A stretch of 59,625 nucleotides of DNA from a virus (IMGVR_UViG_3300020044_004496:1-59625); one strand, 5' to 3'; numbered from the stretch's first letter, positions 7,549-28,103 are shown. Made by a program: numbers and translations. The notes: generated by a model not told the origin, from the sequence alone.

Positions 7549-7550
7549 GC

Positions 7551-8520: not shown

Positions 8521-8535
8521 ACAAGGAGAAGCAAA

Positions 8536-9628: not shown

Positions 9629-9649
9629 TTTTTATATACGGAGAATGGA

Positions 9650-10101: not shown

Positions 10102-10354
10102 CGGTAATGGCTGCGGTGATGGTCAAGGCGACCGCTACAGATTTGTTTGGAAGGACGGCGCTGGCAGCGGCGATAACGAGGGTAGCGGCTTTGGCTACGG
10201 CGTAGGTTACGGCTACGGCTATGGTTACGGTAACGCCTATGCTGACGACTACAGCACACACGGTTACTACGGCAACGTCAACGGCTACTACAACGGAGGC
10301 GCTTACGATAAAGATTACGGCAACGGCTACGGCTTACTAACAATTTTGTCGTAA
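10085..10354 (+). CDS. Gly/Tyr-rich low-complexity protein, paralog of the previous ORF
   Basis: GGAGG RBS; both begin MFP and carry GYGLL near the C-terminus. Confidence 0.6.
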   Translation: MFPVGDGNGCGDGQGDRYRFVWKDGAGSGDNEGSGFGYGVGYGYGYGYGNAYADDYSTHGYYGNVNGYYNGGAYDKDYGNGYGLLTILS

Positions 10355-10450
10355 TGATCAACGGGGGAAAGTTGGTTAGCCATCCCGGCAGTCGGACAAG
10401 GTCTGCAAACTTGCCTTGCAAGACCGGGCTAACACAACGAGTACCCCACC
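10354..10450 (+). ncRNA. Structured intergenic RNA element, copy 2
   Basis: GGGG/CCCC, GAAA/GAGUA internal loop, GUUG/CAAC, GUUAGCC/GGCUAAC. Confidence 0.6.
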
Positions 10451-10466
10451 AATTTGAGGAGCAACA

Positions 10467-10781
10467 ATGGACTACGATTATTTTGGAAAAATTCGTGAAT
10501 GGGCAAATGATCGAAACCTGGTCAAAGGTAGCACCCTGCAAGCGCAAGTGGTTAAGCTGCTCGAAGAATCCGGCGAGCTTGCTGCTGGCGTGGCTCGAAA
10601 TGACATCGAACGCATCGTCGATTCAATCGGCGACATCATGGTGGTGCTCACCATCATCGCCGCCCAAGTTGACATGCCGGTCGAAGAATGCCTTGATCTC
10701 GCATGGCAGGAAATACGCTACCGCAAAGGCAAGATGGTAAACGGCATATTTGTAAAGGAGAGTGATGATGCGACTAGCTGA
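10467..10781 (+). CDS. MazG-like nucleotide pyrophosphohydrolase
   Basis: KLLEESGELA..DSIGDIMVVL..AWQEI..RKG. Confidence 0.88.
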   Translation: MDYDYFGKIREWANDRNLVKGSTLQAQVVKLLEESGELAAGVARNDIERIVDSIGDIMVVLTIIAAQVDMPVEECLDLAWQEIRYRKGKMVNGIFVKESDDATS

Positions 10782-11031
10782 CCTGATCAATTCATTGTTT
10801 GTGTATGACGCACTACAGCCGGAGCTGATTGACGTCTCAAACTGGCGGCCAACAGATCCTCGTAGATATGACGAACGGCGCAAAGCATGTATCAAGTATC
10901 TGCGTGAGCGCAACATCTTTATCTTAGATGGCCACTTCACACCAACCAAAGCCAGTCATACAGACGTCACCGTCGTGTTCAATCGTGAGCGCAGCAAGAT
11001 TGGTGAGACTCTCATACAGGTGGCCAAATGA
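10765..11031 (+). CDS. Hypothetical protein
   Basis: AAGGAG RBS. Confidence 0.6.
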   Translation: MMRLADLINSLFVYDALQPELIDVSNWRPTDPRRYDERRKACIKYLRERNIFILDGHFTPTKASHTDVTVVFNRERSKIGETLIQVAK

Positions 11032-11270
11032 AGACCGCGCTTTGTTTGCTTGCAATACTCTTTGGCGGATGCACAGGTCTTCAGGATGCCACGTCCTCCT
11101 TGTCTGTTGAGGACAAGGTCCAAGCCATGACCAGGGCAGAGGTCATTGCCGGCATAAGCGAATGCGAAAAGGCTGGCATGCGACCGATCATCATCAACGC
11201 CAAACGCAAGATCAACAACCAGACCGTGCCAGCTGTTGTGGAGGTCACTTGTTTGCCGGGGTTCAAATGA
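11028..11270 (+). CDS. Putative lipoprotein
   Basis: MKTALCLLAILFGG-C signal/lipobox. Confidence 0.6.
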   Translation: MKTALCLLAILFGGCTGLQDATSSLSVEDKVQAMTRAEVIAGISECEKAGMRPIIINAKRKINNQTVPAVVEVTCLPGFK

Positions 11271-11614
11271 TTGAAATCCTTGCGCTGGTATGGACGCACT
11301 TCATTGCCGACTTCATCTTGCAGACGGACAGGGTCGCCTTAAACAAAAGCCGCAATACTGGCATTTTGTTTGAGCATGTAGCGATCTACTCTTTAGCGTT
11401 CATCCCTGTTTGCGCCGTGTGGCTGTCCCTGTATCAAGGGGTCCAGTTCTGTGTGCTGACCGCGATGCTGCACTTCATCACAGACTTTTTTTCAAGCCGC
11501 GCATGTTCGGCGCTGTGGAAGAAGAACGAGCGGCACTGGTTCTTTGTGGTCATCGGTTTGGATCAAGCGATCCATATGACCTGTTTGATATTGACATGGG
11601 AGTTGTATAGATGA
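11267..11614 (+). CDS. DUF3307-like membrane protein
   Basis: HFIADFILQT, HFITD, GLDQAIH. Confidence 0.8.
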   Translation: MIEILALVWTHFIADFILQTDRVALNKSRNTGILFEHVAIYSLAFIPVCAVWLSLYQGVQFCVLTAMLHFITDFFSSRACSALWKKNERHWFFVVIGLDQAIHMTCLILTWELYR

Positions 11615-11889
11615 TTACGGACAAAGAAATAGTGGCACGAGTGGGCGAGATTGGAAGCACGGTGTGGCAGCTTGAGAACAAAGTAGCAATGCTACAACGT
11701 GCGGTAGACCTGCTGTTGGTCAATGATCCTGACTGTGAGGTCAAGAAACACTTTGTGGAGCGCGCCAAGTTCAACCTTGAACGACAAGAAGCTTCAGCTA
11801 AAGCGCAGAAAAAGATACGAGATATGCGCTATGAGATTGATGAATTGCTCAGCCAACATCCTGAATTGAGAGAAGCCAATGAACGGTAA
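11611..11889 (+). CDS. Hypothetical coiled-coil protein
   Basis: ATGA overlap. Confidence 0.6.
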   Translation: MITDKEIVARVGEIGSTVWQLENKVAMLQRAVDLLLVNDPDCEVKKHFVERAKFNLERQEASAKAQKKIRDMRYEIDELLSQHPELREANER

Positions 11890-12085
11890 GACAGAATGGT
11901 TCAGCCCAAGGCAGAAGCCAGTGCGCCCCGGTGTGTATGAGTGCGTTGTGGATATATTGGAGGGTTACTGGATTATGAAGATCAGATGGCATCCATACCG
12001 AGGCTGGCTTATTGAACCTGCATCAAAAATAAAAATGTGGCGTGGTTTGACGGTGGAGGAATTTATGAAAAGGGGAGGCAGATGA
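11879..12085 (+). CDS. Hypothetical protein (TEWF....KPVRPGVYE..WRGL)
   Basis: Common small phage ORF pattern. Confidence 0.6.
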   Translation: MNGKTEWFSPRQKPVRPGVYECVVDILEGYWIMKIRWHPYRGWLIEPASKIKMWRGLTVEEFMKRGGR

Positions 12086-12453
12086 GATCGTCAGTTAAGC
12101 GTGTCATCGAAGCCATGCGGTTAGTGCGTCACCTGAACAAAGAAATCACCACGCGCAACATCGCAGAGATACTGGGGATCAAGGTGCAGACAGCGGGTGC
12201 GCACCTGCAAAAGATGGCGAAGGAAGGATTGATTCGTCGTCACGGCATGATCTTGCAGTTCGACGGACAGAACAGAGCGAAGAATGTGCTGTGGCGTATC
12301 AACACACTGGTAGTGCGCAAACTGGAGGCAGCAGCGAATGTCACAAACAACGAGAACAAAAAGACCAGCAGATCAACCCGCACGATGCACGATGTGCAAA
12401 GTCGTAAAGCAACCAAGCGAGTATCACAAGACGCGGTACAACACGCTCAATAG
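12082..12453 (+). CDS. Winged-helix DNA-binding protein
   Basis: TTRNIAEILGIKVQTAGAHLQKMAKEGLI; GGAGG RBS. Confidence 0.7.
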   Translation: MRSSVKRVIEAMRLVRHLNKEITTRNIAEILGIKVQTAGAHLQKMAKEGLIRRHGMILQFDGQNRAKNVLWRINTLVVRKLEAAANVTNNENKKTSRSTRTMHDVQSRKATKRVSQDAVQHAQ

Positions 12454-12523
12454 CTGGTGTAAGGAATGTGTGAAGGAAGACAACAGGTTTCGATACCACG
12501 CATACAAGGAGAGGAAAGCATGA
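12338..12523 (+). CDS. Small Zn-finger protein (CxxC..WCxxC)
   Basis: GGAGG RBS; CTMC..WCKEC; overlaps the wHTH C-terminus. Confidence 0.6.
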   Translation: MSQTTRTKRPADQPARCTMCKVVKQPSEYHKTRYNTLNSWCKECVKEDNRFRYHAYKERKA

Positions 12524-12666
12524 AGTGGATTGCGTGGGTTGACTGGTTGTGTGAAAGAACGGGGCATTTAATTCGTACCGACTGGCCTGAAAAAAGTGAA
12601 GGTTCATATGAACATTGTCAAATTTGCGGAACCCTAATTAAAAAACGGGAGAAGAACAATGGCTAA
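12520..12666 (+). CDS. Small hypothetical protein
   Basis: GGAGAGG RBS, ATGA overlap. Confidence 0.5.
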   Translation: MKWIAWVDWLCERTGHLIRTDWPEKSEGSYEHCQICGTLIKKREKNNG

Positions 12667-12865
12667 GTTGCCTTACACATACACGATCTGCCCCCCAAAT
12701 GATCCACCAAAACAATACACAGCCATGACGCCGTGGATGGTCAAAGCCTTGCGCCACGGCAACGATCTGACGATTGACCAAAGGGCGGCGGTTTACCCGG
12801 CGCATTCGGATGACTTTGAAGGGAAGCTGGCACGGTTGCTGGCAAACGCAAAGGAGAAGAAATGA
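12659..12865 (+). CDS. Hypothetical protein
   Basis: GGAG RBS. Confidence 0.6.
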   Translation: MAKLPYTYTICPPNDPPKQYTAMTPWMVKALRHGNDLTIDQRAAVYPAHSDDFEGKLARLLANAKEKK

Positions 12866-13041
12866 TTTTCTTTGGTGGCTTGTTCATGGTGGTTCTGTCG
12901 TTTGCGGTGTTCATCATGTTTGCCGATCCGATCAACGACAAGCGCGTGTGGCTGGAAGACACCTGCGCAGCAGTGATGATGCTTGGGTTTGGTGTGATGG
13001 TGATTGGCTTGTGTGTTTGGATTGCGAGGGTACTGGGATGA
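12862..13041 (+). CDS. Two-TM membrane protein (59 aa)
   Basis: Hand-translated; AAGGAG RBS; ATGA overlaps at both ends. Confidence 0.6.
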   Translation: MIFFGGLFMVVLSFAVFIMFADPINDKRVWLEDTCAAVMMLGFGVMVIGLCVWIARVLG

Positions 13042-13229
13042 CTTATAAAATCTACACAGAATCCACAGGTGTTGGAGGCGGGGGTGGAAACGATATGAGA
13101 CAAGTATCAGAAACTGAAGTGATGATTGCGTACCTGATGCTCAAGGTGAAGCAGCGTGACTGGCACGGCGTGGCTGATGCTGCGATGGACATTCGGGAGA
13201 TGGAAGCGCGAGGAGGAAAAAGTGAATGA
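13038..13229 (+). CDS. Hypothetical protein (..DWHGVADAAMDIREME)
   Basis: ATGA overlap; may start at a later ATG. Confidence 0.55.
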   Translation: MTYKIYTESTGVGGGGGNDMRQVSETEVMIAYLMLKVKQRDWHGVADAAMDIREMEARGGKSE

Positions 13230-13539
13230 GCCTGTAAAAATGCACTATGACATTGATGCATTCTTTGAAGGCGCGATGCGCCTAACCACAGAGAGACTGA
13301 AAAAGAGGCGCATATGGGAGAGGGCGAACAAAGGGTTTGAACTGAGGATGCTGGACATCGTTCGTCTTGAGTGTGGAACTGTTGGAGTAGTGACTGAACT
13401 AACCGAAAGGAAAGACGCAGCACTTGCATTTTCTGGTGATAGCACAGGTCTTAAAGTTGCGTGGTGGCATCCGTCAGAACTGCAAGTGATTGGTAACGTG
13501 CAAGACTGGGTTGATACTTTGGAGAAGAAAGATGCCTGA
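13222..13539 (+). CDS. Hypothetical protein, possible SH3/KOW-like C-terminus
   Basis: GAGGAGG RBS, GTG start. Confidence 0.55.
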   Translation: MNEPVKMHYDIDAFFEGAMRLTTERLKKRRIWERANKGFELRMLDIVRLECGTVGVVTELTERKDAALAFSGDSTGLKVAWWHPSELQVIGNVQDWVDTLEKKDA

Positions 13540-13717
13540 CATCACGATGTGCCCCGGCAATGGGTGCGACAAGAAAGATACGTGCTACCGCCACACCGCA
13601 ACAGTGCATACGCCATATCAAAGCTGGACGCAGTTTGGACCGGAGGACTGCAAGCAATACTGGCCGATTGATGGGCGGCGCGGTGAGGACGGCAAGTGGC
13701 AACAAAATGCCAGCTAA
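13532..13717 (+). CDS. Cys-rich hypothetical protein (MPDITMC....C.....CYR)
   Basis: GGAG RBS. Confidence 0.6.
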   Translation: MPDITMCPGNGCDKKDTCYRHTATVHTPYQSWTQFGPEDCKQYWPIDGRRGEDGKWQQNAS

Positions 13718-13739
13718 CGGATGGAGAAAGAGACAGATC

Positions 13740-14003
13740 ATGCAATGGATACCGAATGATGAGAACAAACGGCGAGACGAAGCCTTCGCAGACTTCATCG
13801 GCGGGGTTGCTTATGAAGAGGACAGGGGCTGGTCGAAAGAGGTCTGGGACGCGGCGTGGAGCGCGAGACGAGAATGGGTTGGGCTGACAGAGGAGGAAAT
13901 CGATCAGATTTATTGCGATTGCCATAGTGATGATGGTTACCCTTTATCGCTAGGGAAATATGAACGCGCTCTTGAAGCCAAGCTGCGGGAGAAGAACACA
14001 TGA
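13740..14003 (+). CDS. Hypothetical mosaic protein (..EWVGLTEEEI..EAKLREKNT)
   Basis: GGAG RBS; shares modules with neighbours. Confidence 0.6.
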   Translation: MQWIPNDENKRRDEAFADFIGGVAYEEDRGWSKEVWDAAWSARREWVGLTEEEIDQIYCDCHSDDGYPLSLGKYERALEAKLREKNT

Positions 14004-14557
14004 ACCTAGAAGGATTGGAAGCGATTATTGATCTAATTGAAATGGGCGCTATGTCTAGTAATAAAGACATAGCAAAGAATCTGCGCAGTGCGGTTGCAGC
14101 AATAAAAGAACGAATGAGCACAGAGGACGCCCATTCAATGAAGTTGGCGCTGGATGCGCTGGAAACAGAAGGTCTTAATGCAGCTATCAATGCAGCAGAG
14201 GTCTGCCCGAGAAATTTACGTCTGTTCGCTGTTCGGTGCGCTCGTGAGGTACAGCATTTGATGAAAGACCAGCGCAGTATTGACGCACTGGATGTGGCAG
14301 AGCGACATGCGCGTGGTGAAGCAACGGATGAGGAGTTGGATGCTGCTGCGGCTGCTGCAATGGCTGCTGCAAGGGCTGCGGTTGCTGGGGATGCGTCTAC
14401 TTGGGATGCTGCAAGGGCGGCTGCTTGGGCGGCTGCTGGGGATGCTATGGAGGCTGCGGAGGCGGCTGCTTGCGCTGCTCGGTATGCTCGAGATGCTGCC
14501 ATTGAGCGTCAGAAAGAAATCTTTCGAGAGGTATTTAATAACGCGGGGGAAGCATGA
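14000..14557 (+). CDS. Ala-rich helical protein (Imm-5-like phage family)
   Basis: RLFAVRCAR.V.HL..D.RS..ALDVAE..A.G.AT..EL.AA. Confidence 0.6.
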   Translation: MNLEGLEAIIDLIEMGAMSSNKDIAKNLRSAVAAIKERMSTEDAHSMKLALDALETEGLNAAINAAEVCPRNLRLFAVRCAREVQHLMKDQRSIDALDVAERHARGEATDEELDAAAAAAMAAARAAVAGDASTWDAARAAAWAAAGDAMEAAEAAACAARYARDAAIERQKEIFREVFNNAGEA

Positions 14558-14955
14558 GCATCGAAGCCATGAAGCAGGTGTTGGATGCGCTGGAAAGTAG
14601 CCGCGTATTCGTGACCACGCGGGAGAAGATCAAACACCCAGAGGGAACCGAATGGTACGACAATTGCATAACTGTCCTGCGCCAAGCCATTGAGGCCGCA
14701 AAGACAGAGAAACAAGAGCCGGTTGCGTGGGTTCAAGATGTTGAATTTGAACAGTTGCCAGAATTTGCTTTCAGTTGGGTTAAAACAAGATTGCATGACA
14801 AGCCTCTCTACACCCACCCACCCAAGCGCGAATGGGTGTCGCTGACCGATGATCAGATCAAAGAAATCGTTGGGCCATACGAAGGGCAGATCAAAGGTTA
14901 CACACGCGCACTGTTTGACAAGATCGACGCGAAGTTGAGGGAGAACAACGGATGA
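14554..14955 (+). CDS. Hypothetical mosaic protein (MSIEAMKQ..EPVAW..LYTHPP..)
   Basis: ATGA overlap. Confidence 0.65.
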   Translation: MSIEAMKQVLDALESSRVFVTTREKIKHPEGTEWYDNCITVLRQAIEAAKTEKQEPVAWVQDVEFEQLPEFAFSWVKTRLHDKPLYTHPPKREWVSLTDDQIKEIVGPYEGQIKGYTRALFDKIDAKLRENNG

Positions 14956-15215
14956 GCATCGAAACAACAAAGAAACAAGAGCCTTACGGGTATTTCAAAT
15001 ACGACTTGAGATTGGATGCTTGGGTTAAAAGCCGCGATACGAATAGCGGCGTTGCGTTTTACACCCACCCACCAAAGCGTGATCCGTTGACGGATGAGGA
15101 AATGCGCCAAGCAGCAAACGCAATGGATGCAGAACCATTAGCAGAAGGGTGGAAGGAGTTGATTAAATTTGCCCGAGCAATTGAAGCCGCCCACGGCATC
15201 GAGGAGGAGGCATGA
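14952..15215 (+). CDS. Hypothetical mosaic protein
   Basis: ATGA overlap. Confidence 0.6.
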   Translation: MSIETTKKQEPYGYFKYDLRLDAWVKSRDTNSGVAFYTHPPKRDPLTDEEMRQAANAMDAEPLAEGWKELIKFARAIEAAHGIEEEA

Positions 15216-15490
15216 ATATCAATGATTCACACATGGCGGCAAACGCCATTTGCCATGCGGCGCAAATGGTGCAAGTCTCGTGGCAAGAGGCAGCAGCCAT
15301 GCACACCTATCCGCACATTCTCTACAAGCCAAAACTGTTTCGTGATGGGAGCCAATGGTGTGCTCTTCTTGGTGAGGACATTCAAATTGGTGTGTGCGGT
15401 TTTGGTGATTCACCAGCCGCCGCCATGAAAGCATTTGATGCAGAGTGGTACAAACCTATCGCCGCCCACGGCATCAAGGGGGAAGCATGA
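15212..15490 (+). CDS. Hypothetical protein (DGSQWCALLGEDIQIGVCGFGDSP)
   Basis: GAGGAGG RBS. Confidence 0.65.
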   Translation: MNINDSHMAANAICHAAQMVQVSWQEAAAMHTYPHILYKPKLFRDGSQWCALLGEDIQIGVCGFGDSPAAAMKAFDAEWYKPIAAHGIKGEA

Positions 15491-15864
15491 GCATCGAAGC
15501 AATGAAACAGGCTCTTGAGGCGTTAGAGCTACTGCGTTCAGGATTGATCCAAATGCGAAGGCACTCTGAGGAATACGGACGAGCGTGGGCTGGGGCTTAT
15601 GTTGAAGAGTATCAAAAACTTCTCTCAGGCTCCGCATTGGAACAATTTAAAATTTTGAACGCATTGCAAGACCGACTGGCTGATGTTGATGAAGCTGTTG
15701 TCGATGGATACCAAGCCATTGCATCCCTACGCCTAGCCATCGCAGAAGCAGAGAGGCAATCGGCATCCACCAATGGCGAGGCCGGAACAGAGAAGTGCCC
15801 TCCCGGTGGTGGCGGGTATCCCGGTATCAAAAGCAGTCGCTTGATTGTGGAGAAGAACACATGA
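15487..15864 (+). CDS. Hypothetical mosaic protein (MSIEAMKQALEAL..)
   Basis: ATGA overlap. Confidence 0.6.
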   Translation: MSIEAMKQALEALELLRSGLIQMRRHSEEYGRAWAGAYVEEYQKLLSGSALEQFKILNALQDRLADVDEAVVDGYQAIASLRLAIAEAERQSASTNGEAGTEKCPPGGGGYPGIKSSRLIVEKNT

Positions 15865-16064
15865 TCGTGCGTAAAGCTCGTGGGAAAAACAAGTTCGGCA
15901 AAATAATTTTATCCCCTGCTGAAATCATTCTTGCTCAAAGGCTTGGAATACCGGTTGAGGACTATGTAAAAGAGATGTTGGTGCGCATAGCCAAGGAACG
16001 CAAGTGGAAATGGTTTTTTAAAACAAGGAGAACAACAAATGCTAGTCCAACTACAAAAACCTGA
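15861..16064 (+). CDS. Hypothetical protein
   Basis: GGAG RBS. Confidence 0.55.
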   Translation: MIVRKARGKNKFGKIILSPAEIILAQRLGIPVEDYVKEMLVRIAKERKWKWFFKTRRTTNASPTTKT

Positions 16065-16461
16065 CCCTATCTTGCTGGAAGACCCGGTGCGCCCAAACAT
16101 CAAGCCCGAAGACCGACTGGGGTACACGCGGGATGTGTGGGCGTTGATCGAAGACAAGCAGCTGGGGGCGATCCTGTGCATCGCATTCCACAAAACAATC
16201 CCCACCACGGAGGAGGAACTGATGGAGCCGCCAAGCTGGATATGCCTTGACAACGCGATCCTGTACAGCGTTTGGTCGTACAGACCGGGGTGCGGCAGCA
16301 AGCTGGTCCGCGAGTACTTGGAGATGGCGCGTATGCTAGGTTCCCCTATCAAACGCATCGTCACGATGAGTCCGAAGACCGAGATGGCAAGGAACTTCCA
16401 CTACAAGAACGGCGCACGACTTTTGCAGACCAACGAGGAGACGGTGAATTATGAATACTAA
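16039..16461 (+). CDS. Conserved phage protein with possible GNAT-like fold
   Basis: YSVWSYRPGCGSKLV, TMSPKTEMARNFHYKNGA; AAGGAG RBS. Confidence 0.55.
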   Translation: MLVQLQKPDPILLEDPVRPNIKPEDRLGYTRDVWALIEDKQLGAILCIAFHKTIPTTEEELMEPPSWICLDNAILYSVWSYRPGCGSKLVREYLEMARMLGSPIKRIVTMSPKTEMARNFHYKNGARLLQTNEETVNYEY

Positions 16462-16481
16462 ATACAAGGAGAAGGTAAAGA

Positions 16482-16715
16482 ATGGACCCATTACTTAAAG
16501 CACAGCAGGAAGCCAAGCTGCCGGTGATCTACTGCGACCCGACCGAACTGCAAGGCTTTATCTTTGGGGTGTACGACACGGTGACGATGGGCAAAAAGTC
16601 TGACACGCGAACCTTTGCCCTGTACGCCGAGCCGCCACAGTTGCAGCAGAATCAGATGCTGATCGAACCCGCGTTGCTGGAGAAGCTGGGCTATGTGCCG
16701 AAGGGGAAAGAATGA
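16482..16715 (+). CDS. Hypothetical protein
   Basis: AAGGAG RBS. Confidence 0.6.
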   Translation: MDPLLKAQQEAKLPVIYCDPTELQGFIFGVYDTVTMGKKSDTRTFALYAEPPQLQQNQMLIEPALLEKLGYVPKGKE

Positions 16716-16888
16716 ATATATTGATGAGAGTATTACATATTTTACCGTTTGCTCATTTTTATGATAAATGGTCTGGTGTTGAAAAATGTATTGGATATGC
16801 AGGTGCTGAACGTCAGCAACGATTTTGTCTTATCTGTAATAAAAAACAATATCGTACCGTGAACAATTATACTTGGTTTGACAAATGA
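16712..16888 (+). CDS. AT-rich hypothetical protein (58 aa)
   Basis: Hand-translated; ATGA overlaps at both ends. Confidence 0.5.
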   Translation: MNILMRVLHILPFAHFYDKWSGVEKCIGYAGAERQQRFCLICNKKQYRTVNNYTWFDK

Positions 16889-17121
16889 ATGAACGAATTA
16901 AAGAACTTGCTATTAAAGCAGGCGATGATTGGGAACATACTTTAAAAGAAGATCGTGAGTTTCTTGAAAAGTTTGCAGAGTTTATTGTTCGGGAATGTAT
17001 CTCAATTAATAGACAACGAATGTTTTCAGATTATGAAGGTGACAGTCTCCGAGTGGCTCACAACAATGCGTTATTGTGTGCTACCAGCGATATGTTTGAA
17101 CATTTCGGAGTTGAAGAATGA
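16885..17121 (+). CDS. Hypothetical protein (MNERIKEL..EKFAEFIVREC..EHFGVEE)
   Basis: ATGA overlaps. Confidence 0.65.
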   Translation: MNERIKELAIKAGDDWEHTLKEDREFLEKFAEFIVRECISINRQRMFSDYEGDSLRVAHNNALLCATSDMFEHFGVEE

Positions 17122-17348
17122 TAAGAGTGACATACACAAAAGTCTGCGACATCTGCAATAAAGAGTGCAGCACGGAATCGTTTGATTGCACAAATCAGCT
17201 TGGGGGTAAAGGCTTTCCTACCCCACATCCTAGATTCACCTACCAATTCAATGGCGTGATCGAGTTGTGCGATGAGTGCGCTTTACCGATGTTCAAGGCC
17301 AAGGAAGAGATCATGGACAAATACATTCAAGCGAGGGAAGAAGAATGA
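17118..17348 (+). CDS. Small Zn-binding protein (CxxC..CxxC)
   Basis: CDIC..CDEC. Confidence 0.6.
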   Translation: MIRVTYTKVCDICNKECSTESFDCTNQLGGKGFPTPHPRFTYQFNGVIELCDECALPMFKAKEEIMDKYIQAREEE

Positions 17349-17608
17349 ACGAACGAATCAAAAAGCATCTTCACAGCATCCCGCGATACGCGCCGCACGA
17401 AGCGGGATACATGGAATTTCGAGAATCAGGTAATTGGGTGCAATTTGGAGAGGTTGAAAAGTTGGCGGAGTTGCTTGTCAAAGACTTGCGCGACCACTTC
17501 GCAGCCAAAGCAATGCAAACGATGTTGCATGGAACAACAAACCGCGAAAACGTCGCCAAGTACGCATATTCGATGGCAGATGAAATGCTCGCAGTGAGGG
17601 GAAAGTGA
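17345..17608 (+). CDS. Hypothetical protein (LRDHFAAKAM..AYSMADEML)
   Basis: ATGA overlap. Confidence 0.6.
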   Translation: MNERIKKHLHSIPRYAPHEAGYMEFRESGNWVQFGEVEKLAELLVKDLRDHFAAKAMQTMLHGTTNRENVAKYAYSMADEMLAVRGK

Positions 17609-17766
17609 TGCAGTGGATTCCTGACTTCCACCGCAAGAACGAGATACGGTTGCGCTACACTGAGAAGGCGTACAAGCGTGGCATGAGCATGGGGATTGCG
17701 CTAGGTGTGTTCATGTGCATCAGCCTGTTCATGATCTTCAACATACTTAAATTGGTACTCACATGA
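17608..17766 (+). CDS. Small membrane protein (52 aa)
   Basis: Hand-translated; TGATG overlap. Confidence 0.5.
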   Translation: MQWIPDFHRKNEIRLRYTEKAYKRGMSMGIALGVFMCISLFMIFNILKLVLT

Positions 17767-17927
17767 TCGACTACGGCGAAAACATCATCAAAGTAAAGCA
17801 GCTGGAAAAAGCATTGCATGAACAGCTGTTGAAGCGCGATTACCCAGAGGCATTCAAGCTGGCCACGGACTTGAAAGAAGCCGCAGAGGACCTGCAAAAG
17901 TTTTGCTTGAACGCGGTCAAGGCATGA
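17763..17927 (+). CDS. Hypothetical protein (54 aa)
   Basis: Hand-translated; ATGA overlaps. Confidence 0.55.
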   Translation: MIDYGENIIKVKQLEKALHEQLLKRDYPEAFKLATDLKEAAEDLQKFCLNAVKA

Positions 17928-18190
17928 ACAACAAACTGACGGCAGCTGAGCGCAAGTATCTGGCTGCGGTCAAAGAGTTGTCCTGCGGCGTCTGCGGCAA
18001 GCATGGACCCAGCGACGCCCACCACATCGAGCAAGGGCTTCAGTACACCTGCATTCCCTTGTGTCGAGATTGTCACCAGGGTGGGCACAACGGCATCCAC
18101 GGGCGCCGCTCGATCTGGAACACACTCAAGAAGACTGAGTTGAACGTGCTGAATGACACCGTCAAACGGCTGTTTGACAGGCCGCAATAG
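17924..18190 (+). CDS. Ref/DUF968-like HNH-type nuclease
   Basis: CGVCG..DAHHI..IPLCRDCH..GIH. Confidence 0.75.
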   Translation: MNNKLTAAERKYLAAVKELSCGVCGKHGPSDAHHIEQGLQYTCIPLCRDCHQGGHNGIHGRRSIWNTLKKTELNVLNDTVKRLFDRPQ

Positions 18191-18201
18191 CGTGGTATAG
18201 T
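18174..18201 (+). promoter_or_regulatory. Strong sigma-70-type promoter for the sRNA
   Basis: TTGACA (18174-79), 16 nt spacer, TGn-TATAGT (18196-201). Confidence 0.7.
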
Positions 18202-18205
18202 TCGT

Positions 18206-18299
18206 CCTGACCAACCTCCTAGCAGTGGTCCAGGTCGCCATTCAGGCGCTCCCTCCTCGCGCCAGTGAACCCCCGGCTCAAAAGGCTGGGGGTTTTTTT
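18206..18299 (+). ncRNA. Putative ~93-nt trans-acting sRNA with two anti-Shine-Dalgarno loops
   Basis: Bounded by promoter and terminator; hairpins CCUGACCA/UGGUCCAGG (loop ACCUCCUAGCAG) and GGCGC/GCGCC (loop UCCCUCCUC). Confidence 0.7.
18268..18299 (+). terminator. Rho-independent terminator
   Basis: AACCCCCGGC..GCTGGGGGTT stem followed by a T tract. Confidence 0.85.
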
Positions 18300-18326
18300 C
18301 AACTGGTGCAAGTATATTTGTACCTA

Positions 18327-18352
18327 GTCAGTGTAACAGTGTTACACTGAGA
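18327..18352. repeat. 26-bp palindromic site, copy 2
   Basis: Identical to 5697-5722. Confidence 0.9.
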
Positions 18353-18354
18353 TC

Positions 18355-18708
18355 ATGACTCACATCGAGCTCGATCTGCCTTGGCCACCAAGCGTCAACC
18401 ATTACTGGGGACAGTTTGGGAAGCGCCGGTTCATTGCCAAGAAGGGCGTGGACTTCCGCGCAGCGGTGCTTCAGGCCTGCCAAGAACAGGCCGTAGAGCC
18501 CCTAGAAGGACGGCTGGCTGTCCATGTAACCCTGTTCCCGCCGGACAAGCGCAAGCGCGATATAGACAACATCCTGAAGAGCTTGCTGGATGCTTGCGAA
18601 CACGCCGGCTGCTACGCCTCAGACTCCCAGATTGATGAGCTGCACATCATCAGGCAGGGCAACCGCCAAGGCGGCGGCTGCTCCATTCTGATCCTGGCTC
18701 TGAGTTAA
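18355..18708 (+). CDS. rusA: RusA-family Holliday junction resolvase
   Basis: LPWPPSVNHYW, PPDKRKRDIDNILKSLLDA, DSQID. Confidence 0.9.
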   Translation: MTHIELDLPWPPSVNHYWGQFGKRRFIAKKGVDFRAAVLQACQEQAVEPLEGRLAVHVTLFPPDKRKRDIDNILKSLLDACEHAGCYASDSQIDELHIIRQGNRQGGGCSILILALS

Positions 18709-21700
18709 GGCTGCTGCGAGAAGCTACGGATCCGCTCTACGCCGGTCAATATCTTCTGCTTTGCAGCCGTCAGCTGGTCAATCTTTTCGCGCCGCTCTTC
18801 AGGCGAGAACCGCTTGCTTTCGCTTTCCCCAATCTGCTGGATCAAGCTGTTGAGCTCTTTGAGCTGGTCATCCATCTGGCTGACGTAATCATGCAGACCA
18901 ATCAGCTTTTTGTTTTCCGGCGTCAGAGCTTGTAACTTCTGGATTTTCTCGCGCTTTATCTGCGTCTGCATGGTGTTGTATTCCTTGTCCACCTGTTCTT
19001 TGAGGTCATAGAACAAGCGCTCACGCCCGGTGGCTACGGTGGGCAACATGAATCGACCAACCAACGGATACTGTTTTGGCGTCATCGCCGCTCTGTTGCT
19101 GGAAGCCTCGCCAAGCACGTTAGACGCCCACTGCACGGAAACTCCAGCCGATCCAAACAGCCCGCGAATCAAGTGGTCTGCCTCGATGGGGTTGAGCAAT
19201 CGCTTCTCATCTGTGCCGGTCAGTCCACTCAAAATCTTCCCAGCTTCAGAAGTGGTGGAGTTGTATTGCTCAGCCGCCTTCACGTTCTTAAGTCTGGATG
19301 GGGTGATGTTGCGACCGGTAAAAAAGTCGTGATCAAGGGTCAGCTCAATGATCGGACGCGCACCAGTCGGCACCGGCGTCGGCCCCAGCAGCATGTCCAT
19401 AGCAGCATGCTGCAAGGAATCTACCAGCCGCTTCCTGTCCACCGGCGTGTCTGTGCCGCGCTTGGTAACGTAGTTGTAGATTGACTCTGGAATCGCCTTG
19501 TAGAAATAGGCCGCCGAGGTGTGCATCGGCATGGCAATCTTGGTGCCAGGTATGACGTAGTTCTTGAGCTTGGTTTGGTCATCCAGCTTGTCGTACTCAT
19601 CATCCCCGCCAACCAGCATGCAGTACAGCAGCGTGGTGGAGGCCAGCAATCCGCCGGTGATGGCAATCCGTTGCAGCGCCTTGGCTCTGGCCATTCCCTT
19701 GAGGCCGCCACCAGACAGAGCTTGGAATAGCACCTCAATGGTCTGGGCATAGGCATTGGCAAACGCCACGGTCTTGACAATCGCCTGCGCCAGAGCTCCT
19801 GAGCCATGCCGGTTGAAGTTCAGTACGTTGGCCGCCTGATACAAGGCCTGCATCTCATCGCCGGTTTCAGCCATCACGCGCTTGTAGACTGCCACGCGCT
19901 GAGCCATGTCTGAAGCATCGCCAATGTGATCCAGCGCTTGCATGACAAAGCTGTAGGCGTTCTTGTTCATCACGCCCAAGCGCTGCTTGATCTCTGCCTC
20001 TGGCGTACGGGCGAGCGACTTAAACCCGCCAATGCCAGCCGCCTTCAGGATGTCCACTACGGGATCCGTGTTGGTCAAGGAGGTGACAAACCCCTTGTAC
20101 ACGCCACCAAACAACGCGACCGGATTTTTGACGCCTGTCACCCAGGCTGCGGTCGGGGCGTCTTGGAACAGCTGCGAGATCTGGAACGCACCAGATAGGG
20201 TCAGCGTCCTGCGCACAAAGTTGGATGCCATAGACAGCGGCTTGAGCATGGTCAGATTCAGGGTTTCCATGCCAAACACAGACTCAGCAACCAAGGGATC
20301 CGATATCTCTACGACGATCTTCTTGCCGTTGGCAATGAAGTTGAACCGCCCCTTGTTGCGATCCGCTGACGGGAAGACCATGATCTTGTCGTTCTCGTCC
20401 CGCGTAGCATACTCATTCACAATCCTTTGAGCTGCGTACTGGCGGATGCCGTTCATGGTCATGCGCATGACGTTGCGCGTCATGTTGTCAATCATGTTCT
20501 CAATCTCGCGGCTGGTCTGGAACACCACCAGATCGCCCTCGCTGATCGGCACATTCAGACGCACATCACCCCTTGGCGTCGCTTCAATCTTGGATGACGG
20601 AACGGACTTGCCATTGATCGATGCCGAGACTATGGAGGCGGGCTGAATCTTGAATACCTTTTGCCCAGCCTTTGCCTTGAAGTCTGTAATCACCGCCGGC
20701 TTGCCAGCCTTGAACAGCTTCTCTTTGCCAATGTTGGTCATGGACCGGGTGGTGGTTTGGACTGGAGAATGAATGTCCTCCTCGTCATCCATGATCCGGT
20801 TCCACGGCACATAGTCCTTGATTGCTGACAAAACTTCATATCTACCCTGACTCAGCAATCCAACTTGGCGCCAGAAGCGCAGCATGTTTTGATTGACGGC
20901 AGTCCAGTTGTCCATGATTTCGCGCAGCTCAGGATGCGCTTTTTCGCGGGCAATAAAGTCGTCAATCTCTTCATCCGACATCTTGATCTTGTTGAAAGCG
21001 ATCTTGATGCGGGACACATCCTCTTTGGCTTCTTCCACCAGCGCAGCCAACTCTTTGAGCTTGGCCACATCCTTGGGATCTGCGGATTTTTTCGCCCGCA
21101 TTTCCTTCAGCATTTCATTTAAACTTTCGTACTCAGCCTCGCGGTCAAACATCTCATTCTGGATGCTGCGCGAGCGCTTGGCTTCCAAGTAGCCTTGGAT
21201 GATGTCCGTGCCGACCTGATCACCCAGTTTTGCTTTGAGCTTTGCCTCGGCCTTGTACACGCCAGCCATGCCCTTGGCGCGATTGACGGCGACAAACACC
21301 CCGGCCTTGGGGTTAAACTTGATGCCGCCACGAAAGATTACCTCGGTGGCAATGCTGCCAGACCGGATGGCGTTATCCAAAGCAACCGACGCCGTTGCCA
21401 ATGCATCAGCAGTCCGCATCGATCCGCTGTATCGAGCGAAGTCCGCGCCGCCCAACCCCGTGCCATACCAAGTGTTTTTGTTGCGCAAGTAGGTAATGCC
21501 GGCATCAATCTTGTTGAATGCCAAACCTACGGCTGCACGCGGGTCGGTGACTGAGTCTTTCAGCAGCTGTTTGCCAAGGCGTCCAGACTTCAGCAGCATG
21601 TTCTTGACCGGCGCCGTATCGATCATGGGCGTGTGTGGGCGGCTGTACTTCTTGAGCAGACGCTCGTCGTCTAGAGCTTCTCCAGCTCCTTCACTGACCT

Positions 21701-24700
21701 TGCGCCCTGTATCTTCTTCAGCACCCCCGCGTAGATCTTCGCTCCTTGCAGATCTCGCTCCTGTTTGTACAACAGGTAATGAGTCCGGGCCGCCGCCTCC
21801 ATCTCCTCTAGACGATGCTGCTCCGGGCTGTTTGCCGTAATCCTCAAGAGACTTTGCAGTGTTTTGTGTTGTTGATTTTCCATATGCCTCTCTCATTGCG
21901 GTGAAAGCAGATTCATGCCGAGACAAAATGTCCAGCAATGCGTCGCGGAAATAATCCAGCAGACCTTCATCAGCCAGGTATTGCTCAACCTTGATCATCT
22001 GCGAGTTGTGCGCAACGCCGTGATCCATTGATCCGGTGTGGGCAATCTCATGGATCATGGTGTTCAGGAAGTTTTGACGCACACCAAACAAGCTCTTTGC
22101 GCCCCAATCGTAGAACGGGTTCAGCAGCACAGCCTTGTACGGAACTTTGATATGGACGCCGCCGTACTTTTTATCGACCGACACGCCAGCAAAGAACAGG
22201 TTTTCCGGGGTCAGTACGTCGTATCCCCAAATTCCGCTCTTGGCCAACGCCTCCTTCATCTCAACCATGAGGGTGCCAAGCTCAGCAAAGAATTTCTCTG
22301 GCTCTCCGTACTGGCGACCAACTTCCAAAAAGTCTACGTTGGTGTTGTTGTGATAGATCGGCAAGCTCGGGTCTTGCTTCATATCAAGCATGAACTGCGA
22401 CCGATCTGGCGCTGCTTTCTCTGCCTGTAGCGATGCCTCTTTCTTTTTCTCTTCTTGTTTTTTTGTATCAACCAAAACTGTGCCAAGCTGATCCAGCACC
22501 TGCTGGCCAGTTACGGTTACTTCTTTTGGCAATGGAGGAAGCTGCGTCAGCTCTTGAGTTGCACCACGCTGGTCAAATACTTTTTTCAGTTTCTTTGCCG
22601 TGTCAGCAAGCTCTTGTCCAGCCTCAACACGCGGCATGGACACAATGCCCTTGAAGCTCTCTTGCAGATCGGCCATTTCATTGCCGCGAGCAAGTTGAGC
22701 TAAGTATGCCTGCAATGCATTGACATCGTTATCAAGACGACCCTTGAAGCGTTCTCGACTATTTTCAAACGGATAGTCAGGATGCTTTGCCTCAACATTA
22801 GGCTTCACGTTGACAATGATGTCGCACGGAATTACTTCAGTTTGATTCAGTGCAAATCTATGGTCGAACTGATATACGCCGCTTGATAAGACTTGATGCT
22901 TTGGACGTTCTTTGCGGTTCACGCCAAAGTAAATGTCCGCACTACCCCAATCAAAATTTACTTTGAATTGTTGGTAGTCAGCTACGGGGAAATTTACGCC
23001 CGCAGCTAGTTGCGTTGTAGATTTAGAACCATACGAATTGAATTCCAAATTCACTTCAACCGGACCAATGAGAGGGTGGTTCAACGGCTCAACAGCATCA
23101 GACGCCCAAGGGAACCAAATCATCCTTTCGTCGCCAGTTTTTGGATCAATATAGTTCTCTGGTATTGTCACCGTGACTGTGGTGCCGTGCTCGTCTTTTG
23201 GCGCCGGAGACTTTTTGATCTCAAACTTGCTGTTTGCAATGTCCTTGGATGTGGTGTCAACGGTTACGCGAACACCATCGCGCACGGTGTTCAGTTGCAA
23301 ACGCTCAGAGCCAAGCATGAAGCCCATCTTGGCAAGACCAAGTCCACCGCTTCGCTCTTCCGGAGCAAGGTCTGACTTGTTGGAGCCGGCAACAGTAAAG
23401 AACGCCTCGCGCACAATCTCCGGCGTCATGCCACGGGCATTGTCGGTAATGGAAATAGTGCGAGCATCACGATCTATTTTGATGTCGATCTTCCCAACCT
23501 TGTACAGCGACGGACCTTTCAAGCTTGACACTGCACCTTTGACGGCATCAAAAGAGTTTTGCAACAACTCTTTGACCGCGACGTCAGCCAGGTTAGATGC
23601 GTACATGTTGGCGCCAAGCAGCTGGATCAGGCCGCCCATGTCGGCATTAAGATGCCCAGCTTCTGTGCCAAACTTTTTCTCTTGGTCTGGCGTCTTGGAT
23701 GCAGCAGAGTCCGGCACTTGATCAGGACGCGCAACCATAGTCAGCTGCTTGGATTGCACTCGCTGATATGCCTTTGGACTCTTGGCGCTGTCAGGACGGA
23801 AGCGAACATAGTCACCCTCTACGCCAACAACAACTCCGGGCGTATTGCCAAGCCGAACAATGTCGCCAATCAAAAAGCCTTCAGCAATCTTTTCCAGATC
23901 GCCCTTGACTTTGTTTTCGACAAACTTTGCTTCAGCTGCGTCATCCTTCTTTCTTTCGGCAATCAGCTCGCGCACTGCGCTTTCGGCGGCTTTGTCGTCA
24001 AGATCCATGTAGTAATGGTCTTCAACAGCCTCATCAATCTCTTTTGGCGACACTCCAGCACTGATGGCATCTTCAATGACATGCCTGTCCAGCCGGTCAT
24101 ACTTGTTGGCGACAGCCAAGATGGGATTGTCAACGGCGTTGTTGGCCATGAAGAACGAATAGGCAAATCCTTCCGGCGTAACGCTGCGAGCATTCTTGGT
24201 GGCTTGTGACTTGCCGCCATACATCTTGTGCATTTTCGAGCCTTCACTTGGCTCGACAGGGCTGATTGGAAGATCGGCGTTGAAGCGCCCCCACAGCAGG
24301 GTCTTTTTGGTGTACGGATCGCCAAAGTGATTGGGGTTGAATGCCAGGCGCCACGGCGGCAGACCGGTCAGTTTCTCAATCCTGCCTACCGGGTTTTCAA
24401 TCGCCCATACGGCCGGCTTGAAATACTCGACCGTAGCCAGCGTCTGCTGCACCAGCTCTATAGATTGACGGGTGCGACCATCTGCATCTTTGGCTGCAAA
24501 GTGCCGTGCGCCACTAACCGCAAAGTCTGTGCATGGGCAGGCAGCAAGGATGGCGTATACATCCTGTCCCTCAAATGAACCAAAGTAGTCGTTAAAAAAC
24601 TCGGTCGAGAATTTTTGAACGTCACCAACTTCAGGGTCATTTTGTATATCAAACCTGAACACCTGATAGCCGGCATCTTCCCAAGGCTGGGACCACTGAC

Positions 24701-27700
24701 CCGTCAGGTCAAACAATGACAGAACAATTTTGTCGCTGTTCTCGCCAGTTTTTCCCTGTGCTTCAGCGTGTTCTTTCCACTTGTTGATCTGTTCTTTGGC
24801 CTGATCAAGAGTCATCCAGCCAAATTCTTTGTGATAGATCTTTGACTTGTCTTCTGTGCGTACGATTTCTGACTTGGCCGGCGCATCAAATACATGCGTG
24901 ACTTGCCCGCCATCAGCGTCTAAGGAATGTCCTTCGTATTCAGCAAAGACATCAGCAATGTCAGCAACTTCTTGATCCGTCGCGCCCTTGGGCGGAGCCT
25001 CTGAGATCACTTCCTTGGCGTCTTCTAGCGGCGGCGCAAACTCTCGCGTGGGTGGGGTTTCGCCACGGCCAGCTTCTTTTTCGTGGGCTTTGTCAAACTC
25101 TGCCTGAGCTGCATCAAAACGTCTGCGTCCAGCCAAAAATTCTTCATCGCCAATTTCTTGATCGCGATACGCCTGTTGCAATTTGTTGAACTCTTGAGTT
25201 GCCTTCCTGGATTTCTCAAGAGCAATCTGGTATTCGGTGGACAGCTCGGCTTCACCGCCAAACAGATCCTCTGTGGGCGGCTCCTCGCGTTCCTGTGTTT
25301 GCGGCTGAAGACCAAACAGGTCTACTTCCCTGTCAGCAATCGCCTTCTCTTCTGCCTTGCGCTGCTCCTCGGGCGCGGCCTCTTCGCGCTTGCGGATCTC
25401 TTCTTCCGTCTCGCCACGCAGGGTCAGCTCGGGCGCAGCAACGCCACGCTCAGCCCGGATCTCGGCCACCAAATTAGGATTGGTAGACCATGAATCCCAT
25501 GCCGACTTGGCTTGGCGCAGCTCTTCCACGCGCTTTTGAACGGCCGCCGGGTCTTTGATGTCGATGCCCTCTGCCTTAGCTAGGGCAGGATTTTTGGATG
25601 CGCCGGTCATCACCGACAGGCGCTGGGCGATTTCCCGCTGTTTGCGGGCTGCGATCTTGGCCATCTCTTCGGCTTCGCGCATGGCGCTGTCGTCGAACCC
25701 GAACATGTCCGTGGTCGTGTCACGCTCACCGGCCAAAGCTTTGACCGCCTGCATCATGTTGACGGCGTTGGATGCGCTCTTGCCGTCCTGTACGGCCTTG
25801 ATTCCTACGGCTTGGAGCCTGCTGTCATTTGGGGCATTTTGGGCGATGAGGTAGGCTGCTTCATCTCCGACGACATCGGCACGATGGGCGGCAATGAGTT
25901 CCTCACTTCCTTCATTTGCGATGGCGAAGCTCCGCTTGCCGATAGCTCTTGCCAGTAGTCCGCGTGCGTCTGCCTCTTCCTTGGAGATGTTTGCGCCTTT
26001 GAAGTAGCTGACATAGTCTTTGACCTTCCCTTGTCCGTCTCGGATGTTTAGTTCTGCGTCCAGTGTGGCTGCGCGTTGCTTGTCAAACCCAGCCGCCTCA
26101 TCATGGATCTGAGCCGGGATGGTTTGCTCCCCGCTACGGCGAGCCAAGTCCAGCCGGTGCCGGCCAGAGATGACCTCAAGGTCGCCATTGGTGCGGCGCC
26201 ACAATTGGATTGGGGCTACGCCAGTGCGCTCAAACTTCCCGCCAAGCGGCTCAACCACTCCCTTGACGTTTGCCTCCGCTTTGAATTGCGGAACGTCTTC
26301 AGATAGCTTGAGCTGATCTACCGGGGCTTCGACTATAGGCAGGCCTGCAACGGTATGCGGCGGCGCCGGCTGCTCTATTGCAGGTGGTTCTGGCCGTGCT
26401 TCAGGTGCCGCTGCCTCAACTGGCGGAGCAACCACCTGTTCTTCTTGCACCATGCCGGGAACTTGCTGGCCGATCTTATTAAGATAATCGTCTGCCAACA
26501 AGCCCATGTCTTCTTGCGGAGCTGGCGGCTCAACTGGGGCGGCAGCTTGGGGAGCTGGGGCTGCTGGCGGCGTAACAGGCGCGGCGGCCCTTTGTGCCGG
26601 CAAAAACCCAGCCTGCTCAATCATCCTTTGAGCTAGGCCTTCGTATGACGTGTCTCGTTTGTAAGGCTGACGGCCACCTTTGGCTAGGTCTTTGGCTGCC
26701 TGCGTTGCCTTTACTACGCCGGTTGTGACGCCTGCCGTGGCGCCAGCCTGTAGCACGGTCTGACGCAGCGTTTCTTCCAGTTCGTTATACAAACCAACCA
26801 AGCTGGGCTTTTTAAGACCAACGGTTGGCAAGATATCAATGCCGTATTGTGTTGCTGTCGTGGCCAACTCTGAAGGAATTTCAGTGGCTATTGACTTCGC
26901 CACATAGGCCGGGACGCTTTCCAGCCCATTGGCCGCGACGTGCGCACGCAGCCCAGCCAAAGCTTTGGTCATGCCAAAACGCTCAAAGAAAACTTCTGCC
27001 GCAGCCATTGGCGCGGCTCTGGCAGATGCCTGTTGCCCAGTCAGGCCGGAAGCCCGTCCGTCCGCATATTCTTGGCCAAACGTCTGTATGGCAGCTTGAG
27101 CCAGCACTGGTGCAGCAGAACCAGTCAACACGCCCAGAATCATGGTTGGAGCTTGACCTGCCAAGCTGGTCATTGCGCCTTGGGCAGACTTTTGGAAAAT
27201 AGATTCGCCTTCCGGCACAGCTTCGCCTCGAGCGCTTTCCACCCGAATAGCATTCAACAGATTCTTGGAGGCCTGATCCTTGTTGCCAAAAACACCAGAA
27301 TCAGCAGCCGCAAGCATAACCCCCATGCCGCTTTTACGCATGGCGGAAGCAGTTCCAGCTCCAACCCGCTCCCAGAATCCAGCGTCTTTCAAGGCCTCGG
27401 CTTGTGCTGCCGCCGCCTCGCCGGCCTGTTCGCCAACAATGTCTCTTGTAGCTTGTTGCAGGCTCGATGGTTGGTTACGCAGCGCATCTATTTGCGCCTG
27501 CTGCTCCGCATATTCTGGTCGCAAACCTTGTTCTATAAGCTGCGCAGTTCTAGCCTCAAGTCTTTGGTCTGCTGCACGACGCATTGTAGAGGGAGCTTTT
27601 TCCAGCTCTGCATACCGGCGCTCCACCTCTTGCACTGCCGCGCCATACTGCGGATCGTTGCGCAGTCGGGCAATGGCTTCCTGGCGTTGCGCGGCGGGCA

Positions 27701-28076: not shown

Positions 28077-28103
28077 AATTTCGCCTTAAAAATGCTGTGA
28101 CAA

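Follow-up and report, generated by a model that had tools for sequence, protein, structure and literature searches.

The window analysed here is the whole 59,625-nucleotide (nt) stretch of viral DNA IMGVR_UViG_3300020044_004496:1-59625, and the element under study is a predicted small RNA (sRNA) unit at positions 18174-18299 of its + strand. The unit lies between the genes of a DUF968-like Zn protein and RusA in an early operon that is read rightwards and opens with a conserved gene of 56 amino acids (aa). A second early operon is read leftwards and opens with a ParB-like gene, and a control region separates the two (Table 1). A reading made from the sequence alone, without database searches (the sequence-only reading), had proposed that the unit encodes an unannotated phage sRNA, the loop of which is antisense to the ribosome-binding site (RBS) of the first gene in both operons.

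All features described in that reading were recovered at the coordinates it gave. The near-consensus promoter was the best of 9 promoter-like sites in 10000-29000; its -35 element sits within the 3' end of the DUF968-like open reading frame (ORF). The region 18207-18299 folded into three hairpins with -37.8 kcal/mol (z = -2.75; 1 of 200 shuffles was equal). Both of the proposed hairpins with anti-Shine-Dalgarno (anti-SD) loops were found in this fold, and the third hairpin, a G+C-rich stem followed by U7, corresponded to the strong terminator. The terminator was missed by a simple scan because its stem runs on into A/U pairs. The seed in the apical loop of hairpin 1 had a mean probability of being unpaired of 0.78, compared with 0.43 across the whole RNA. 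The earlier statement that about 93 nt are free of ORFs was upheld: no ORF of at least 60 aa was present in 18208-18299, and the only + strand ORF between the DUF968-like stop (18190) and the RusA start (18355) was a 41-aa GTG frame crossing the terminator, which leaves no credible ORF there.

The complementarity of loop 1 to the early genes was verified at both sites. The loop segment CTCCTAGCAGT (18216-18226) is the exact 11-nt complement of ACTGCTAGGAG (5797-5807), located 6 nt ahead of the ATG at 5814. Given the early rightward promoter, which has a conserved upstream GGGTACAACCTG and a homologous counterpart in related phages, the leader would measure roughly 23 nt, and this box would cover about +6 to +16. 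In the leftward operon, the plus-strand CTCCTAGCGTGGT (5175-5187) is the reverse complement of the ParB-like RBS, with which loop 1 pairs in the proposed one-bulge manner (8 base pairs (bp), a 1-nt bulge and 5 bp). The two boxes are situated 12.4 and 13.0 kb from the sRNA, respectively.

The short motif CTAGGAG occurred 4 times on both strands of the window, namely at the two first-gene RBSs, in the sRNA gene and at one site on a non-coding strand, and GCTAGGAG was carried within the window by the two first-gene RBSs only. According to the sequence-only reading, these two RBSs should rank top among the 5' regions of the phage, and essentially this was observed when loop 1 was paired with the start regions of 202 candidate ORFs. 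The ParB-like start had rank 1 with -22.7 kcal/mol, and the start at 5814 reached -21.3 kcal/mol, the third-best value in a tie with two other ORF starts; rank 2 was an internal TTG, an unlikely start. The best of the possible starts of each ORF was scored, and the set was generous, with spurious frames included. When loop 1 was slid along about 40,000 windows with RNAduplex, the ParB-like RBS was 7th among the collapsed non-self sites and the site at 5797 fell in a tie cluster around the 18th place. The sites outranking both RBSs were mostly G·U-rich stretches within genes.

Related loci were collected from IMG/VR by searches with the RusA, DUF968-like, exonuclease and ParB-like proteins, which returned 80 loci each. 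No nucleotide homologue of the whole 211-nt region was detected by blastn or nhmmer against the related loci at E ≤ 0.01, and only 12-15 nt of loop 1 were conserved at the nucleotide level. Because only this short seed is conserved, a pattern scan was chosen. The scan with the exact 14-mer returned 81 stretches, which were mostly coding or chance occurrences, and included five further sRNA-like backbones, designated A, B, B', C and D. Searches anchored on leaders or terminators added the units E (L264), E2 (L372), F (L306/L309), G (L317, L321, L324), H (L323, L370, L353), I (L336/L337), L330, L362/L365 and L376, which resulted in a total of about 15 backbone types of a promoter-terminator unit in related IMG/VR phage contigs. 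A terminator-based finder turned out to be too strict: it missed the terminators of types A and D, placed a terminator after only 2 of 78 DUF968-like genes, and upstream of distant ParB-like genes many of its best units were uninformative.

Most units had a promoter of the form TTGAC[AGTC]-17/18-TAnnnT and a terminator. Both elements were seen by sequence in the window and in types A, B, B', C, D, E, F, H and I, and the promoters of type G were weak. The identical 14-mer occupied the loop of six different backbones (window, A, B, B', C, D), and the seed was placed in an apical hairpin loop in the same six and in E, F and G. The probability of the seed being unpaired was 0.57-0.90 in 12 of 13 RNAs compared with whole-RNA means of 0.39-0.54; in the thirteenth, type I, the script scored a CCUAG other than the seed. 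The outer stems varied by backbone and stayed complementary (GUCC/GGAC, CCAUGAA/UUCAUGG, GUCCUA/UAGGAC, GUCCGUG/CAUGGAC). With the loop held open, the flanks of B, B', C, E, E2 and F out-paired shuffled flanks (no more than 10 of 300 shuffles were equal). The pairing was weaker in the window (31/300) and in A and H (19-31/300), and no such signal was obtained in D, G and I with 300 shuffles. Alignment of hairpin 1 or of the whole RNAs with MAFFT left the stems out of register because the stem-to-loop distances differ, and the complementarity of the stems was judged sequence by sequence. In most relatives the ParB-like gene followed the unit on the same strand at a distance of 0.4-2.7 kb; the window is rearranged in comparison.

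A complementary box on a first-gene leader, whether of the exonuclease/ERF operon, of the ParB-like/helicase operon or of both, was found in every cognate phage examined. In the six backbones with the canonical loop, each cognate contig had a box of 11-13 nt directly after the early promoter, at the RBS of whichever gene leads the operon: the exonuclease in B, B' and D, the 56-aa homologue in C and the window, and, in A, a gene of 59 aa, the pairing there including one G·U that results from a C-to-U change. The sequences from the -10 to the box and from the box to the start codon varied among the phages. In type I, the box was placed 6 nt past the -10 of two promoters, and a third copy followed the sRNA terminator. 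On the leftward side, GCTAGGAG at the RBS of the ParB-like gene was kept in the closest relatives (L259-L261), in types A, B', C, E and H, and in L329 and L339.

The seed and the box were found to change together. The RNAs of B and E are homologous, with a common 5' end and terminator and homologous leaders, yet their seeds and boxes differ jointly: the seed of B ends in UAGCAGUGG and faces a box beginning with CUACUGCUA, whereas that of E ends in UAGCGGCAU and faces CUAUCGCUA. The changes from B to E amount to one exchange of A:U to G:C, one C:G turned into U·G and a new U:A pair at the other end. In E (L264), the seed UCUCCUAGCGG matches the box UCGCUAGGAGA on the exonuclease and ParB-like leaders alike. 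In G (L317, L321), the same 3 nt are missing from both partners (CUCCUAG-UGG with CCA-CUAGGAG). The seed of I (L336), UCCUAGCAGUUGA, corresponds to the box UCAACUGCUAGGA on two leaders, and its UUGA extension fits the UCAA flank to give 12-13 bp. Type F forms a 13-bp pairing, including one G·U, with the helicase leader; H2 (L370) uses another 3' extension, with AGACUU facing AGGUCU; in L362/L365 the seed CUUCCUUGUUU faces the SD variant AAAUAAGGAAG; and in L376, CUUCACUCCU pairs with AGGAGUGAAG.

For counting, all pairs were anchored on the common CUAG and contiguous pairs were taken. The 22 cognate sRNA-leader pairs formed contiguous duplexes of 8-13 bp, and the mean extension beyond the core was 6.8 in cognate combinations compared with 5.5 with leaders of other seed classes. 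When the classes were permuted with one representative for each of the six seed classes, 4 of 720 permutations reached the cognate sum. The co-variation of the loop with the RBS flanks in related phages, put forward as a check by the sequence-only reading, was thus borne out by the A:U to G:C change, the joint 3-nt deletion, the differing extensions and the permutation result. The complementarity of the loop to translation-initiation regions is conserved and co-varying.

The unit is likely to encode a phage sRNA of about 92 nt that acts in trans by base pairing and represses the early operons by means of its anti-SD loop, and this sRNA is probably an RNA switch for the early genes. The comparative evidence from about 15 backbone types speaks for the core of the original proposal, an independently transcribed sRNA with a loop antisense to the RBSs of the first genes of both early operons. 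The host RNA polymerase would transcribe the sRNA from its own strong sigma-70 promoter, and an intrinsic terminator belonging to the unit would end the transcript; the promoters and the SD are enterobacterial in type. Hairpin 1, by its apical loop of 10-14 nt with the anti-SD CUCC and UAGCAGUGG, would make the initial contact with the SD-containing boxes at the extreme 5' end of both early leaders. The pairing would block the binding of the 30S subunit at the first cistron and may additionally expose the mRNA to decay or polarity, and the accumulation of the sRNA would lower the replication and recombination functions together. Both the synthesis of the sRNA and the translational repression by pairing are what we infer from these data. 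Its purpose might be an early shut-off in lytic growth, timing the switch from early to late expression, or immunity against related incoming phages.

The diversity of seeds and boxes among close relatives is reminiscent of the heteroimmunity of P1/P7 c4, but one and the same seed is found in most backbones. The sRNA could act as the master repressor of a phage group devoid of a protein repressor, and would, with the first cistrons of the replication and recombination operons both silenced, maintain a quiescent (carrier or pseudolysogenic) genome or exclude superinfecting phages by RNA-defined heteroimmunity groups; we regard this extension as doubtful. Seeds and boxes would co-diversify among close relatives (B vs E, the variants of G, I, L362) and create these groups, and a master repressor would amount to the immunity logic of c4, built anew on an anti-SD sRNA by podovirus-type phages that look lytic in other respects. 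The wiring of one seed with two early operons is testable, and the natural seed/box variants are ready-made compensatory mutants. Regulatory circuits can be uncovered without cultivation from the way in which sRNA loops and 5' leaders co-vary in metagenomic phage contigs.

Several observations weigh against a repressor of this kind. The 11-mer in the window alone is no better than chance: the RNA had 3 exact 11-nt antisense matches on both window strands, whereas about 2.4 are expected by arithmetic. The case depends on the comparison with relatives, and what exceeds chance in the window is the location of the matches. The ParB-like RBS was without a box in L170 (B), L317/L324 (G), L262 and L330. 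The unit was directly downstream in only 5 of 78 DUF968-like loci, and many exonuclease loci had other leaders and no detected unit. Uncompensated changes were also seen, including an A·A mismatch of F with its own exonuclease leader and a lost pair in G3 (L324). In a cruder RNAduplex test with whole sRNA bodies and 5 classes, 9 of 120 permutations were as good as the cognate arrangement. The counts of units and pairs are inflated by shared ancestry, and two copies of a binding site for one protein would co-vary identically.

The last of these points belongs to a different explanation, according to which the motif (CTSCTAGSAG and its flank) is a near-palindromic DNA site for a phage protein, such as the ParB-like protein or a regulator of the early promoters; the site would occur in opposite orientations at the early leaders and in the intergenic unit, and the RNA complementarity would be a by-product. 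The seed and the box are reverse complements which are two symmetric positions short of a perfect palindrome, and one box is just ahead of the ParB-like gene. However, the motif always occupies the apical loop of a hairpin whose stems covary and which belongs to a promoter-terminator unit; in all backbones it is the anti-SD, and never the SD, that stands on the transcribed strand; and no further copies exist in the window except one unextended CTAGGAG. In addition, of 44 first non-Watson-Crick positions beside the perfect block, 10 were G·U compared with 5.7 expected (simulated P ~0.03; the sRNA-leader pairs are not phylogenetically independent), and this excess favours RNA pairing over DNA identity. 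A protein site appears improbable on these grounds. We judge it also improbable that the unit is a cis element without a function in trans, serving as the terminator region of the rightward operon or as a constitutively terminated leader which controls read-through into the downstream gene in the style of lambda PR'/6S or StxS. The unit does stand at the end of a + strand operon, co-oriented with the downstream genes (RusA here, the replication operon in relatives), and a strong promoter immediately followed by a strong terminator is the architecture of lambda 6S RNA. Such an element fails to explain a loop of 10-14 nt that is identical over six backbones despite diverged stems and spacers, or why the loop tracks the leaders of distant operons. 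A fresh promoter and box follow the terminator in relatives (L336; the post-unit sequence in L323), and no antiterminator family was present among the ORFs scanned.

Since both loops carry CCUCC, which is able to pair with any strong SD, the sRNA could mainly act on host mRNAs, like lambda PreS or prophage DicF, with the matches to phage RBSs reflecting generic anti-SD content. Host-acting phage sRNAs are documented in PMC12197685 and bioRxiv 10.1101/2024.10.31.621285. In the present phages, the specificity bases past the SD match the phage leaders and change with them, and the window has GCTAGGAG at no RBS other than those of the two first genes; host mRNAs as the main targets are considered improbable as well. 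The least credible explanation, which we consider highly improbable, is that a promoter-like site and an ordinary terminator happen by accident to accompany an anti-SD-rich spacer and have no function. The near-chance number of exact matches agrees with it, and promoter-like sites were no commoner than in shuffles, whereas a conserved loop and a complementary leader recur in about 15 backbone types.

The predicted trans-acting sRNA was compared with known systems. At the gathering threshold, no Rfam family was detected in the window or at the unit position in 8 related loci, and no c4-type model was among the Rfam hits of E ≤ 10 in 18100-18400. Only sub-threshold alignments were obtained, with Betaproteobacteria toxic sRNA (RF02278; 17.5 vs 50 bits), anti-hemB (RF02837; 22.5 vs 49.5 bits) and ErsA (RF01719; 22.3 vs 50 bits). 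These families likewise consist of short RNAs in which an intrinsic terminator comes after C/U-rich anti-SD loops, but the aligned part was essentially the CUCC loop and the terminator, and the families are chromosomal and act on host mRNAs.

Among phage regulators, c4 of P1/P7 arises by processing of a transcript that it shares with its target operon, and its role is to control the antirepressor in a temperate plasmid prophage. In contrast to this generally known arrangement, the unit here is equipped with a promoter and a terminator of its own, the anti-SD is itself part of the seed, and the targets would be the first cistrons of replication and recombination operons 12-13 kb away; lysogeny genes were not found among the ORFs scanned here. 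The sar and OOP RNAs are encoded in cis, as antisense transcripts with full complementarity to the target locus, whereas the sRNA here would be trans-encoded with a seed of 8-13 nt. StxS is a short terminated PR' transcript able to act as a trans sRNA. The unit resembles lambda 6S RNA and StxS in its strong constitutive promoter, a strong terminator within about 100 nt and the nin/rusA neighbourhood, but downstream of it only RusA and then a convergent gene of 3123 aa are found, without late genes. No antiterminator was identified among the ORFs scanned, a Q-like gene not having been searched for exhaustively. T4 RegA is a protein which represses the translation of several early mRNAs at their initiation regions; it is similar in that one factor shuts off several early messages and differs in that the repressor proposed here is an RNA.

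According to PMC12197685, c4 (immI) shares with the present unit that a phage small RNA with a short loop-displayed complementarity blocks a phage mRNA around the RBS, and the specificity bases of c4, as is also generally known, differ among related phages and thereby determine heteroimmunity. In the same review, sar RNA (P22) and OOP RNA (lambda) are small RNAs of phages which use antisense pairing to repress phage regulatory genes, phage sRNAs regulating the phage's own programme in trans are few, with P1/P7 c4 as the textbook case, and most recent examples of phage sRNAs act on host genes. A description of the present phage sRNA was not found in a literature search at the level of listings and abstracts. 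The best reading of the comparisons is that the predicted sRNA belongs with the phage antisense-RNA repressors as a new family without an Rfam match, which would work in the manner of P1/P7 c4 RNA. It would be a fairly widespread sRNA family in uncultivated phages, probably those of freshwater Betaproteobacteria.

The window is a linear IMG/VR record with a CheckV completeness of about 95%, and the coordinates of its features are collected in Table 1. The structural genes are on the - strand and are read from the far end. The 3123-aa ORF (18705-28076, -) carries LPD38 (large polyvalent protein) and HATPase_c_3 domains and is convergent with RusA, their stop regions overlapping by 4 nt. The sequence-only reading had described a phage with no recognisable CI repressor; this held for the part of the ORFs covered by the scans (20 with PHROGs and 20 with Pfam, most small ORFs being outside), among which no integrase or repressor family was detected. 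The sole hint of a DNA-binding regulator among the scanned small ORFs was a weak, sub-threshold match of a 140-aa ORF (1575-1997, +) to the Sigma70_r4 helix-turn-helix (19.7 bits vs the cut-off of 24.1). No tRNA genes were found in the window. Close cultured phages were not detected either: the tblastn search with the exonuclease topped out at 38% identity, and blastn of 17000-19500 against phages gave a single 85-nt match. A scan of genome contigs for the host yielded 8 loci; each came from a metagenome-derived or uncultured assembly, and their labels contradicted one another.

Table 1. Positions of the predicted sRNA unit, its putative target boxes and the surrounding genes in the window.
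Feature	Position	Strand	Remarks
sRNA promoter, TTGACA-16-TGgTATAGT	18174-18201	+	11/12 consensus positions; TG before the -10 (extended -10)
Predicted sRNA, ~92 nt	18208-18299	+	5' end placed ~7 nt past the -10; 3' end in the U-tract
Hairpin 1	18209-18236	+	Outer stem GACC/GGUC, seed at the apex
Seed CCUCCUAGCAGUGG	18215-18228	+	Anti-SD and specificity bases; apical loop of hairpin 1
Hairpin 2, loop UCCCUCCUC	18245-18263	+	Second anti-SD loop
Intrinsic terminator	18267-18299	+	Third hairpin; G+C-rich 9-12 bp stem at 18267-18295, then U7
Early rightward promoter, TTGACA-17-CATGAT	5756-5784	+	Predicted start ~5791
Target box 1, ACUGCUAGGAG	5797-5807	+	SD region of the 56-aa gene; ~+6 to +16 of the transcript
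Target box 2, ACCAC-GCUAGGAG	5175-5187	-	SD region of the ParB-like gene
Possible loop-2 target, GCGCGAGGAGG	13206-13216	+	RBS of a 105-aa ORF, GTG 13222; uncertain
Leftward operon	1957-5167	-	ParB-like protein (phrog_1033), SF2 helicase (ResIII/Helicase_C), Toprim protein
ParB-like gene	4316-5167	-	Opens the leftward operon
Divergent control region	5168-5813		646 bp
Rightward operon	5814-18708	+	56-aa gene, PD-(D/E)XK exonuclease, ERF recombinase, SPFH protein, many small ORFs, DUF968-like, RusA
Conserved 56-aa gene	5814-5984	+	Opens the exonuclease/ERF operon
DUF968-like Zn protein	17903-18190	+
RusA	18355-18708	+
Minus-strand block	18705-59619	-	3123-aa polyvalent protein (LPD38, HATPase), ejection/tail/head genes, portal, large terminase

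The suggestion that loop 2 may target other mRNAs was followed in the window and in the relatives. Loop 2, CCUCCUCGCGC, had an exact 11-nt complement at 13206-13216, and its best-matching start region was that at 13222. This part of the suggestion stands for one RBS, but a conserved counterpart of the pairing was not present in the relatives, and the 105-aa ORF at 13222 had no Pfam family. A similar second anti-SD loop, CCUCCUCGC, was present in types B, B' and E at a different hairpin position, and its matches in the cognate loci were inside genes and not at RBSs.

Further palindromic and structured elements were observed near the unit and in the control region. An exact 26-nt repeat is located at 5697-5722 and 18327-18352, the core of which is the perfect 10-1-10 palindrome CAGTGTAACA-G-TGTTACACTG. 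One of the copies precedes the -35 element of the early rightward promoter by about 35 nt, and the other ends 2 nt before the start codon of RusA. In relatives, variant palindromes with a TAACA-N-TGTTA core occur directly before RusA; the L251/G002 sequence is identical. The repeat is probably the operator of a regulator or an RNA hairpin at the RBS of RusA. In the E2 relative (L372:700-735), a TAACA-N-TGTTA-like palindrome, similar in type to the putative operators of the early region, lies in the spacer of the sRNA promoter (TTGACG-17-TATAAC), and the sRNA of L372 may be under operator control.

On the - strand, a structured stretch of about 150 nt (5505-5660) lies between the palindrome and the ParB-like gene, with a fold of -68.9 kcal/mol (z = -4.2; 0 of 200 shuffles). 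It ends in a long hairpin and U6 on the - strand, a hairpin that can also be read as a + strand terminator. A possible TTGACT-17-TAGTCT promoter was noticed by eye just upstream, and the CU-rich run CUACUCCCUUCCACC is inside the stretch. No Rfam match was obtained in 5100-5850. The stretch is a candidate for a second sRNA or for the leader of the replication operon.

In three related phages, the Betaproteobacteria-1 RNA (RF02932) was matched between the sRNA unit and the ParB-like gene, at L323:17394-17513, L336:8999-9123 and L317:14776-14891, with 93-98 bits compared with the gathering threshold of 49.4. The motif was absent from the window in the Rfam scan, and a literature search on Betaproteobacteria-1 gave no relevant paper. 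The three matches are a hint that the host is betaproteobacterial and that this orphan motif has a phage context.

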